This document shows, piece after piece, positions 1 to 4,394 of a stretch of DNA of 4,394 nucleotides (the stretch's first letter is position 1; each line of letters starts with the position of its first letter). A program made the translations under genes and the position numbers. Origin of the DNA: a virus (Duplodnaviria; Heunggongvirae; Uroviricota; Caudoviricetes); the IMG/VR virus record IMGVR_UViG_2778261085_000005, positions 1 through 4,394 of that record; one strand, given 5' to 3'. The notes under the pieces are model-generated. The model saw nothing but the letters and a program-made list of their open reading frames with translations, was not told the DNA's origin and did no database searches.

Positions 1-49
1 CCTGTTAGGGCGCGGCTGGTAAGAGAGCCTTATAGGCGCATTTGAAAAA

Positions 50-80
50 CCTCCGGCTATGCCGGAGGATATTTATTTTT
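50..80. terminator. Hairpin plus T-tract: intrinsic-terminator-like structure, possibly bidirectional, or a structured cos-region element
   Basis: Perfect inverted repeat CCTCCGGC (50-57) / GCCGGAGG (61-68) with a 3-nt loop TAT (58-60), 8 Watson-Crick pairs of which 6 are G:C. Followed on + by ATATTTATTTTT (69-80) and preceded by TTTGAAAAA (41-49), which gives a U-tract on the - strand as well. Confidence 0.4.
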
Positions 81-86
81 ATGGTG

Positions 87-98
87 TTGATTTTGATT
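87..98. repeat. Perfect tandem hexamer (TTGATT)x2 followed by a T-run; possible protein-binding or DNA-bending site
   Basis: Read directly: TTGATT at 87-92 and again at 93-98, then GTTTTTTGTT (99-108). The minus strand reads AATCAAAATCAA, which contains the AATCAA core of an IHF-like site but not the full WATCAANNNNTTR consensus. Confidence 0.5.
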
Positions 99-173
99 GT
101 TTTTTGTTCATCGCTAACACCGTTTGCCTAAAGTTGTTCGCGAGATGCATGTTTAAAACATTCTGGAGCGGGT

Positions 174-668
174 ATGGATCGAGAGTTAAAAAATCTGACG
201 CTGAATATCAGTCAACTGGCGGCACTGTCAGGTGTACATCGCCAGACTGCTGCGGCAAGGCTGCAAAATCTACCCGTTGCAGGGGGGCATGAAAGCAACC
301 TCAAGCTTTATCGGGTGGTTGATATTGTGTCGGCATTTCTGGCATTGCCACCGCCGGTTGCAGAAGGCGAAATGGACGCGCATGAGCGCAAAGCCTGGTA
401 TCAGTCTGAACGTGAGCGTCTTAAGTTCGAACAGGAAACGGCACAACTCATTCCGGCCAGTGATGTCAGACGGGAGTTTGCCATCTGGGCAAAAGCGGTC
501 GTGCAGGTGCTGGAGACATTACCGGATATTCTGGAACGTGACTGCGGTCTGCAGCCTGCCGCTGTGAGCCGTGTTCAGTCCATTATTGATGATCTGCGCG
601 ATCAGATAGCCCTGCGGGTGACTGAAGCAGGTGCGGATGATGAGGAGGAATTACAGCAGGAGGAGTAA
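174..668 (+). CDS. Phage terminase small subunit, lambda Nu1 family (164 aa)
   Basis: ORF with GGAG (165-168) 5 nt upstream of ATG 174. The N-terminus has a helix-turn-helix-like segment (LTLNISQLAALSGVHRQTAAARLQ) that lines up with the lambda Nu1 N-terminus (KKQLADIFGASIRTIQNWQEQG...GGGKGNEVLYDSAAVIKWY versus ...AGGHESNLKLYRVVDIVSAF). The C-terminal tail is acidic (ADDEEELQQEE). The stop TAA (666-668) overlaps the next start. Position immediately upstream of the large terminase gene fits. Confidence 0.85.
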   Translation: MDRELKNLTLNISQLAALSGVHRQTAAARLQNLPVAGGHESNLKLYRVVDIVSAFLALPPPVAEGEMDAHERKAWYQSERERLKFEQETAQLIPASDVRREFAIWAKAVVQVLETLPDILERDCGLQPAAVSRVQSIIDDLRDQIALRVTEAGADDEEELQQEE

Positions 669-2979: not shown

Positions 2980-4394
2980 TGGCAATTCTTGATGATGTGA
3001 TTGGTGTTTTTTCTCCTGGCTGGAAGGCTGCTAGATTACGCTCGAGGGCATTAATTCGTGCCTATGAGGCTGTAAAACCCACCCGCACACATAAAGCCCG
3101 ACGGGAAAACCGTTCTGCCGACCAGCTCAGTAAGTACGGGGCGGTTTCCCTGCGGGAGCAGGCCCGCTTTCTGGATATCAATCATGACCTGGTTATCGGC
3201 GTTTTTGACAAACTTGAGGAGCGGGTGATAGGTGCAAAAGGGATTATTGTCGAACCCCAGCCATTCCTGAAAAACGGCGGTGTGGCTACAGAGCTGGCAA
3301 TGATTATTCGTCGTTTGTGGGCAGAATGGTCTGTCAGCCCGGATGTTACCGGACAACATACCCGCCCCATACTTGAGCGCCTGCTGTTACGTACCTGGTT
3401 ACGTGATGGTGAAGTGTTTGCCCAGATGGTCAGTGGAACGGGAAGCGGACTGGTGAGGCCTGCCGGTGTACCTTTCTGGCTCGAGGCAATGGAGCCGGAT
3501 TTTGTACCCATGCTCAGTGATGAATCTGCGGGGCTGAATCAGGGAGTTTTTCTGGATGACTGGGGGAGGCCGAAAAAATACCTGGTTTATAAAAATTATC
3601 CGGTCACTGGTCGGCAGGTCGATACCAAAGAGATTGCCGCTGAAAATATGGTGCATCTGAAATTTACCCGCCGTCTTCATCAGACGCGTGGAACATCTAT
3701 GTTGTCAGGTGTGCTGATGCGGATCAGTGCGCTTAAGGAATACGAAGATGCCGAACTGACAGCGGCGCGCGTTGCTGCAGCACTGGGACTGTATATCCGC
3801 AAAGGAGACGGGCAGGATTATGATGAACCCGTGACAAATAAGGATAACGACCGGGAACTGCATATCACCCCAGGTATTATTTATGATGATCTGCGTAAAG
3901 GGGAAGATATTGGCATGATCAAATCCGATCGGCCTAATCCTAATCTTGAAACTTTTCGCAATGGTCAGTTACGTGCAGTGGCGGCGGGAAGCCGCCTGAG
4001 TTTTTCCAGTGCAGCACGTCATTATAACGGTACCTACAGCGCACAGCGGCAGGAGCTGGTCGAATCCACTGATGGTTATCTGATCCTGCAGGATTGCTTT
4101 ATTGGTGCAGTAACACGCCCTGTATACCGGACGTGGCTTAACATGGTTATTGCGGCAGGGCTACTGAAAATTCCGCCGGATGTCGATATGAAAACGTTAT
4201 ATAACGCAACATATTCTGGTCCGGTAATGCCGTGGATCGATCCTGTCAAGGAAGCTGAAGCCTGGAAAATCCAGATCCGAGGTGGGGCGGCGACAGAATC
4301 AGACTGGGTACGCGCCAGTGGTCGTAATCCGGATGATGTCAAACGTCGGCGCAAGGCCGAAATTGATGAAAACCGCAAGCTGGATCTGGTATTT
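2979..4394 (+). CDS. Phage portal protein, lambda gpB family (3' partial; 472 codons in window, no stop before window end)
   Basis: ATG 2979 overlaps the W stop (TGATG), with GAGG (2970-2973) 5 nt upstream. Frame 0 is open from 2979 to the last base of the window, translated by hand; it is absent from the ORF track only because no stop is reached. The segment LRAVAAGSRLSFSSAARHYNGTYSAQRQEL resembles lambda gpB LRYIAAGLGVSYEQLSRNYAQMSYSTARAS. Gene order after W matches lambda. Confidence 0.9.
   Translation, partial: MAILDDVIGVFSPGWKAARLRSRALIRAYEAVKPTRTHKARRENRSADQLSKYGAVSLREQARFLDINHDLVIGVFDKLEERVIGAKGIIVEPQPFLKNGGVATELAMIIRRLWAEWSVSPDVTGQHTRPILERLLLRTWLRDGEVFAQMVSGTGSGLVRPAGVPFWLEAMEPDFVPMLSDESAGLNQGVFLDDWGRPKKYLVYKNYPVTGRQVDTKEIAAENMVHLKFTRRLHQTRGTSMLSGVLMRISALKEYEDAELTAARVAAALGLYIRKGDGQDYDEPVTNKDNDRELHITPGIIYDDLRKGEDIGMIKSDRPNPNLETFRNGQLRAVAAGSRLSFSSAARHYNGTYSAQRQELVESTDGYLILQDCFIGAVTRPVYRTWLNMVIAAGLLKIPPDVDMKTLYNATYSGPVMPWIDPVKEAEAWKIQIRGGAATESDWVRASGRNPDDVKRRRKAEIDENRKLDLVF

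Follow-up and report, generated by a model that had tools for sequence, protein, structure and literature searches.

The stretch of DNA analysed here (4,394 nucleotides, referred to as the window) begins with a 173-nt leader, downstream of which lie genes for the small and large terminase subunits, a head-tail adaptor and a portal protein. This gene order, taken from the listing of open reading frames and from Pfam matches, is that of the standard start of a lambdoid head-gene region. The features referred to below are as follows.

1-77, + strand (same orientation as terS): right end of IS200, its last 77 nt, identified by identity to DNA downstream of the IS200 tnpA gene
8-20, + strand: GC-rich run GGGCGCGGCTGGT, internal IS200 sequence within the invariant right end
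50-68, + strand: perfect hairpin CCTCCGGC-TAT-GCCGGAGG, 8-bp stem and 3-nt loop, 9 nt from the IS200 end
72-77, + strand: TTTATT, the six terminal nucleotides of IS200; the T-rich target in intact cos has the same bases just before the insertion point
78-173, + strand: terS-proximal 96 bp of a lambda-type cos (distal cosB and terS leader), cos coordinates 91-186
84-90, - strand: predicted TerS site R2, inverted, TCAACAC (TCGACAC in relatives), TCRWCAY motif
108-114, + strand: predicted TerS site R1, TCATCGC (TCATCAC in most relatives), TCRWCAY motif
164-168, + strand: Shine-Dalgarno sequence GGAGC of terS, found by sequence inspection, ending 5 nt before the ATG at 174
174-668, + strand: terS, small terminase of the DUF1441 family (Pfam DUF1441, E 2.7e-41)
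668-2770, + strand: terL, gpA-type large terminase (Pfam GpA_ATPase and GpA_nuclease)
2767-2979: head-tail adaptor, 70 aa (phrog_118)
2979 onward: lambda-family portal gene (open reading frame listing, profile matches)

An earlier note on this DNA had called the first gene Nu1-like, and protein comparisons agree, the terminase genes forming a lambda-type module. TerL carries both the GpA ATPase and the GpA nuclease domain and is 25% identical to lambda gpA (E 3e-19). TerS matches the 'terminase small subunit' family phrog_141 at 7e-74 and the lambda Nu1 family phrog_57 at 8e-10, and lambda Nu1 matches phrog_57 at 1e-76 and phrog_141 at 5.6e-8, the reciprocal cross-matches being full-length. 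These PHROG cross-matches support the view that TerS is a remote homologue of Nu1. An hhalign comparison of TerS with Nu1 was collinear, including the helix-turn-helix (HTH) segment, at a probability of only 15%; BLASTP of TerS against Nu1 and sequence searches of the PDB with TerS returned no match, and a single-sequence AlphaFold model of TerS (pLDDT 66; 44-67 at the N-terminus) was too poor for a judgement of fold. The leader thus lies directly upstream of a Nu1-type terS and a gpA-type terL, a position that is a feature of lambda-type cos sites.

The earlier note had read the whole of 1-173 as a candidate cos region, and all the leader features that it listed are present, namely the GC-rich run at 8-20, the hairpin at 50-68, the tandem TTGATT at 87-98 and the T-tracts at 72-80 and 100-105. 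The leader is, however, of two origins. In megablast comparisons with phage genomes it splits at ~72-78, and from position 72 to the end of the window at 4394 the sequence is 88-97% identical to phages mEp460, phi458, 569R4 and Ayreon, with 95-97% identity to phi458, mEp460_4F5 and 569R4 over 72-173. Positions 78-173 are homologous to the terS-proximal cos of mEp460/phi458-type phages, and this part of the proposal stands, whereas 1-77 is IS200 DNA.

The evidence for the latter comes from several sources. Window 1-78 is 100% identical to positions 39325-39402 of phage Lambda_ev058, which lie between ren and ninB, a context unrelated to packaging, and directly 3′ of a gene for a 152-aa "mobile element protein"; this protein is a Y1_Tnp transposase (Pfam PF01797, E 3.8e-38), and the same gene is labelled "Transposase, IS200 family" in the annotation of PhiR63_2. 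Alignment of Lambda_ev058 with lambda reveals a clean insertion of ~711 bp into CCTTTTTATT/TGGGGG (the slash marking the insertion point), and in Salmonella houtenae an independent IS200 copy has ...GGAGGATATTTATT in common and diverges thereafter. Window 1-77 occurs at 9,477 places in 2,621 of the 5,426 complete E. coli genomes, on chromosomes and plasmids and in up to 35 copies per genome. In IMG/VR the right-end pattern was found in 92 stretches with 52 different right flanks, all of which diverge directly after ...ATATTTATT; since the following base may be A, C, G or T, the element ends at window position 77. Most of the copies for which both ends were found are full length, measuring 701-703 nt between the hairpin motif of the left end and the right terminus and ~710 bp in total, close to the published length of 707 bp (PMC4513863).

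The window therefore has IS200 sequence where the earlier note saw a GC block resembling a lambda cohesive end and a hairpin belonging to cos. The hairpin at 50-68 is that of the IS200 right end and closely resembles the left-end hairpin, CCCCCAGC-TAG-GCTGGGGG. It receives a terminator-like call on both strands, and folding of window 1-90 gives z = -3.55. By analogy with IS608 and the IS200/IS605 family, the hairpin is probably the subterminal structure recognised by TnpA, and it is likely to serve also as the terminator-like end of tnpA. The piece conforms to known IS200, an element of Salmonella and E. coli with a Y1 HuH transposase: its right end is identical to that of Y1_Tnp-encoding copies, it is a dispersed multi-copy repeat with a fixed terminus and an insertion site 3′ of a hairpin and T-run, and the element has subterminal hairpins at both ends, with neither terminal inverted repeats nor target-site duplication (PMC4513863; empty-site comparisons). 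It differs in that the window holds only the last 77 nt, tnpA lying outside.

The junction could be placed to the base by comparison with an E. coli MMC-J-0020 prophage, which is the closest relative found, has an intact cos and is identical to the window over 78-700 except at base 88 (T in the window, C in the relative). The empty site in this prophage reads ...ACAGTGGTTTTATT/TTTATGGTG and, across the insertion point, ...TATTACAGTGGTTTTATT/TTTATGGTGTCGA..., from which it follows that a window coordinate equals the cos coordinate minus 13 and that the element lies between cos 90 and 91, that is between window positions 77 and 78. As TTTATT is both the IS terminus and the last bases of the target, the first aligned base in BLAST comparisons with relatives varies between 66 and 72. 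No copy of the IS/cos junction was found in complete E. coli genomes, GTDB representative genomes, JGI metagenomes or IMG/VR. Each of the two components is of a known kind, and this insertion is a one-off.

Relatives with an uninterrupted leader show what would be expected upstream. Loci with an identical TerS carry ACGGGTCCT-(22 nt)-CACG/GGGCGGGAGCGT/CGCGGAAAAAGG in 10 out of 10 cases, the nick context being CACG/GGGCGGGAGCGT/CGCGG (slashes marking the predicted nicks) and the cosQ heptamer GGGTCCT standing 22 nt before the nick. In all 10 the first G of GGGCGGGAGCGT is exactly 186 nt before the terS ATG, compared with 190 nt in lambda. When the 60-nt cosQ-cosN stretch was aligned with that of lambda, 39 of 61 positions matched (z = 5.8; none of 2,000 shuffles scored as high), and the alignment covers the GGGTCCT heptamer and the conserved CG at both nick positions. 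The 21-nt cosN core taken by itself matches lambda at 16 of 21 positions, a score that can also arise by chance somewhere in 4.4 kb of sequence; the case for this putative cosN rests on cosQ, spacing, position and conservation taken together.

Start points of related records agree with this assignment. In both the cdtI and the Tritos record, base 1 is the initial G of the 12-mer; the Tritos record, which is linear, closes with ...CTGCCACG (...CCACG). Bases 1 to 12 of phage LLS, whose TerS is 58% identical, are GGGCGGCGCGCT and are annotated as a 5′ cohesive site (PMC12315714). Cr-LKS3, which is only distantly related and also has a DUF1441 TerS, reportedly carries 5′ cohesive ends whose flanks resemble those of lambda (PMC9303873), and Gifsy-1 has been grouped by Feiss and colleagues with the lambda-like cos phages, whose 12-nt ends vary at positions 7-12 (PMC4669245, PMC4856287, PMC9026076). 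Homology and the starts of such records were used to assign cosN, since the mEp460 and Ayreon records follow a convention and open at terS. In the case of Ayreon, cos was left unlocated and only "expected within about 1 kb upstream" (PMC5764929). The 12-mer GGGCGGGAGCGT is thus a predicted physical genome end for the lineage.

Other record starts were considered. The mEp460, Ayreon and mEp460_ev081 records begin at window position 149, and a physical end between 148 and 149 was rejected; the first feature of mEp460 is a CDS at 1..519. Bases 1-60 of the mEp460 record (JQ182728) correspond to window 149-208, and there the usual terS ATG reads ACG and the A-run that follows is one base shorter, either a real variant or a sequencing error. 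As a result terS was annotated from an upstream ATG at record base 1 with an altered N-terminus, MFKTFWSGYGSRVK..., which explains the record start. The linear record of mEp460_4F5 (LR595868, bases 1-30) opens with 5 nt ahead of the predicted nick (CCACG/GGGCGGGAGCG), and two bases (TC) are missing just after the 12-mer; this start looks like an assembly break or artefact at a physical cos end. In Gifsy-2 (positions 303-330 of the locus examined) the cosN equivalent is CACG/GGTGGCTTCGGG/CTCGCGG, far more diverged from lambda than the published Gifsy-1 sequence, and its R2 and R1 form a perfect 12-nt inverted pair, TTCGACACTGAA.

Transferred to window coordinates, the cosN equivalent falls at -12, before base 1, and it has been displaced further by the IS200 inserted between 77 and 78. 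A genome end within the first ~25 nt, one of two options given in the earlier note, is contradicted by this; the other option, a cosN just upstream of the window, fits the relatives, in which cosN lies 186 nt before terS. The idea of an intact cos at 1-173, in which cosN would occupy roughly 8-20, the hairpin and T-tracts would belong to cosB or bend the DNA, and the genome would end in the first 25 nt, has the correct position upstream of a Nu1-like terS and a gpA-like terL in its favour, as well as GGGCG at 8-12, which equals the first five bases of the lambda end. Window 8-19, however, matches the lambda cohesive end GGGCGGCGACCT at 6 of 12 bases, which is the chance level, with the conserved flanks absent, and the best match to the 21-nt lambda cosN core in 1-173 is 11 of 21, below the mean best of shuffled windows (13.7). 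The cosQ heptamer GGGTCCT was found nowhere in the whole window on either strand. Furthermore, 1-77 is a dispersed repeat that also stands beside the IS200 transposase gene in contexts unrelated to packaging, and relatives with the same terminase carry different DNA at this place, together with a far better cosQ-cosN 186 nt before terS. An intact cos at 1-173 is accordingly so improbable that it can be set aside for practical purposes. A further candidate is TACGGGGCGGTTTCCCTGCGG at 3135-3155, inside the portal gene, which agrees with the core of lambda cosN in 16 of 21 positions; this equals the shuffle maximum and there is no cosQ nearby, and the match was attributed to chance. It scores as well as the true family cosN on the 21-nt measure and would be a decoy for pattern-based cos finders.

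Much the most probable reading is that window 1-173 consists of the right end of an IS200 (1-77) joined to positions 91-186 of a lambda-type cos from a common lineage of E. coli lambdoid prophages (mEp460, phi458, Ayreon), the cos having been split by the IS200. The intact cos of the relatives is like that of lambda in its cosQ heptamer, in its nick context CACG/GGGCGG.../CGCGG, in an A/T-rich I2, in its distance to terS (186 against 190 nt), in having direct-inverted-direct repeats with an IHF consensus after the first, and in the accompanying gpA-type TerL and Nu1-related TerS; the Feiss laboratory has extended the lambda-like cos to Gifsy-1, N15, 21 and phi80. It differs from lambda at bases 7, 8, 9 and 11 of the cohesive end, in an R motif that is TCRWCAY and not CGTTTCC, and in a TerS that belongs to Pfam DUF1441 and not Phage_Nu1; the window differs in addition by holding the R2-R1 half only, the site being split by the IS. 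The cos regions of cdtI/Tritos and LLS/mEp213 have an identical or nearly identical cosQ-cosN-I2 and a related terL, with records that start at the first G of the 12-mer, whereas the cosB and TerS of cdtI and LLS have diverged (TerS identity of 42% and 58%, respectively).

The earlier note proposed aligning the leader with known cos regions; the portion from 78 to 173 does align with lambda-type cos relatives, and 1-77 matches IS200 instead. The aligned portion contains two of three predicted TerS sites. When cos regions from phages with a DUF1441 TerS were aligned (this lineage, PhiR40_1, 1720a-02, VT1-Sakai, Stx2_14040, Fels-1, LLS and Gifsy-2), TCRWCAY motifs were located across the eight phages at cos ~44-51 (+), 96-99 (-) and 119-123 (+), the second and the third of these positions each being occupied in seven of the eight. 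The segment from cos 30 to 140 takes in the three motifs and TATCAATCTATTA, the sequence at cos position ~40 is TTCGTCATCACCACCACTG, and a conserved TGTTTTTTGTTC directly precedes the R1-like motif. An IHF-like WATCAANNNNTTR at cos 61-64 is exact in this lineage, 1720a-02 and cdtI and is present in relaxed form in three others. The order of the R-like motifs in these phages is that of lambda, R3-I1-R2(inverted)-R1, and the motif endings shift together at all three sites, being CAC in this lineage, CAT in Sakai and Fels-1, and TCGACACTGAA (CACTGAA) in Gifsy-2. In intact relatives the R3-like site, the IHF palindrome, I2, cosN and cosQ belong to the part of cos on the other side of the IS. In a shuffle test the probability of three or more TCRWCAY matches was 0.0008, a post hoc value, as the motif had been derived by inspection of the same sequences that were later scanned. 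Taken together, the conserved positions and order make the TCRWCAY motifs candidate TerS sites. Phage cdtI, which has cosQ-cosN-I2 and terL in common with this lineage, has a diverged cosB and a TerS only 42% identical, and such a mosaic is the modular pattern that would be expected if cosB co-evolves with TerS.

Both predicted sites in the window depart from the sequence seen in most relatives. R1 is off-motif at position 6, a variant also found in MMC-J-0020 and one other locus (L015). In R2, base 88 is C in 10 of 10 related loci, in sequenced phages and in the closest relative (TCGATTTTGATT), and T only in the window, a C-to-T change that falls in the predicted core and turns TCGACAC into TCAACAC. 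The tandem TTGATT (TTGATTTTGATT), which the earlier note had listed, is perfect only because of this change; it appears to be the predicted R2 core plus spacer, brought into register by the accident of one substitution.

In the proposed intact site the cosQ heptamer GGGTCCT would be followed after 22 nt by the nick context CACG/GGGCGGGAGCGT/CGCGG, an A/T-rich I2, an R3-like site (~44-53), a palindrome with 12-bp arms and an IHF consensus (~58-87), a T-run, the inverted R2-like site (~97), the R1-like site (~121), the ribosome binding site and the ATG at +187. If the site works as in lambda, the R sites would be occupied by TerS and the DNA bent by IHF, and the bound TerS and bent DNA would position the gpA-type TerL to nick cosN, generating 12-nt 5′ cohesive ends. 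An IS200 inserted between cos 90 and 91 would separate cosQ-cosN-I2-R3-I1 from R2-R1-terS. If the element is of full length (~710 bp), cosN would lie ~0.72 kb upstream of window base 1, and under simple insertion of a complete IS200 the left junction would read ...ATTACAGTGGTTTTATT/GTGCACAGAAAACCCCCAGC (or GTCTATGG...). The rest of the IS and cosN may still be present upstream in the source genome.

Two other interpretations accept the IS200 end and differ in what surrounds it. One supposes that 78-173 is no more than the 5′ leader of terS and a remnant spacer, the phage having a simple cosB of the N15 kind for which a site close to cosN suffices, so that the window would be devoid of any terminase site. 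N15 reportedly uses one critical R3-type site (PMC4669245, PMC9026076), the R1-like site varies among close relatives of the window, and an unbiased search for 9-mer repeat families recovered the R sites of lambda, Gifsy-2 and Fels-1 and did not single out the R motif in this lineage. On the other hand, the inverted pair RTGWYGA ... TTCRWCAY and TGTTTTTTGTTC hold their position across phages whose TerS proteins share no more than 40-65% identity, R3, R2 and R1 change their motif in step, and the cosB arrangement R3-I1-R2-R1 has been described for Gifsy-1 by Feiss and colleagues (PMC4669245, PMC4856287, PMC9026076). A simple cosB is unlikely on this evidence, although it is the strongest of the competing interpretations.

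The other would make the IS200 piece a right end left on its own, or the border of a rearranged or deleted segment, with the cosN half absent from the source genome. The window does hold 77 nt of the element only, as this would predict; yet the junction is exactly at the normal right terminus and next to a canonical hairpin-plus-T target, as for a simple insertion, and copies with both ends found are mostly full length. The window starts exactly 77 nt inside IS200, and 77 is a commonly used largest k-mer of assemblers, so that the contig was probably broken at the repeat, and a break of this kind would explain the missing upstream half of cos. Loss of the cosN half is improbable, though less so than an intact cos, and a simple insertion that split a lambda-type cos is preferred to both.

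Transposition of IS200 proceeds through single-stranded DNA, and the element enters immediately 3′ of a terminator-like hairpin with a T-run behind it. In viral contigs, the left flanks of IS200 have a perfect hairpin and T tail at the insertion point in 19 of 22 independent cases, compared with 0.4% of random positions, the rule applied requiring a perfect stem of 6 bp or more and, after it, a T-rich tail reaching up to the insertion point; the hairpins of the other three are apparently imperfect, as judged by eye. Among these left flanks (IMG/VR loci L036-L126), one locus (L102) has an IS200 directly behind the right end of another, from which it follows that the element's own right end looks like a target. 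A published survey likewise reports sequences resembling terminators directly in front of IS200/IS605 elements (PMC13548323). The cos segment ACCACTGTAATA-GATTGA-TATTACAGTGGT followed by TTTATT obeys the hairpin and T rule, as does the lambda ren-ninB site. The cos palindrome with its TTTTATT would thus look like a terminator-type target and, as the preference of IS200 is already known, may simply be a good mimic. That IS200 split the cos by mistaking the IHF palindrome and T-run for its usual terminator-like target is a tentative suggestion, with the balance against it.

With regard to consequences, the insertion would put ~0.7 kb between cosN-R3-I1 and R2-R1 and would place two terminator-like hairpins, the left-end terminator and the right-end hairpin of IS200, in the late transcript, before terS. 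Since in lambda most of the work falls to R3 and IHF, and polymerase modified by Q passes through terminators, the prophage may be impaired rather than dead. Should the cos be split as proposed and the prophage nevertheless package its DNA, R2 and R1 would be dispensable at a distance in this lineage, as in the simple cosB of N15; should it fail to package, an IS attracted by a structural feature of cos would have inactivated a prophage in nature.

The insertion happened once, in a single strain, and little of general importance follows from it. The main value of the analysis lies in a correction, in that the cos-like GC block and hairpin are a transposon end, and a leader taken as intact would mislead the definition of genome ends, the design of cos plasmids and the prediction of prophage inducibility. 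The comparison with relatives reaches further, as the terS leader of this lineage is present in at least 1,360 of 5,426 complete E. coli genomes. It yields a predicted position for cosN, 186 nt upstream of terS, in a very common E. coli prophage lineage for which the mEp460 and Ayreon reference records, opened at terS, leave cos unlocated, and for the DUF1441 small terminases it proposes an arrangement of TerS sites that can be tested.

Some minor features of the window may be recorded. A 77-aa open reading frame at 59-292 crosses the IS/phage junction and overlaps terS out of frame, and was judged spurious. Rfam searches gave sub-threshold matches only, STnc490 scoring 21 bits against a gathering score of 56 and AfaR falling short likewise, and both were disregarded. 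Window 145-163, 10-30 nt before the terS ATG, consists of ATGCAT followed by TGTTTAAAACA and forms a small palindromic block that is kept in PhiR40_1, the leader of which is 80% identical, and is absent from the 1720a-02 and Sakai-type leaders. At the far end of terL, just before the overlap with the adaptor gene, a purine-rich AGAAAAAAGAAAAGAAAAAAAG at 2697-2722 encodes RKKKRKK near the TerL C-terminus.
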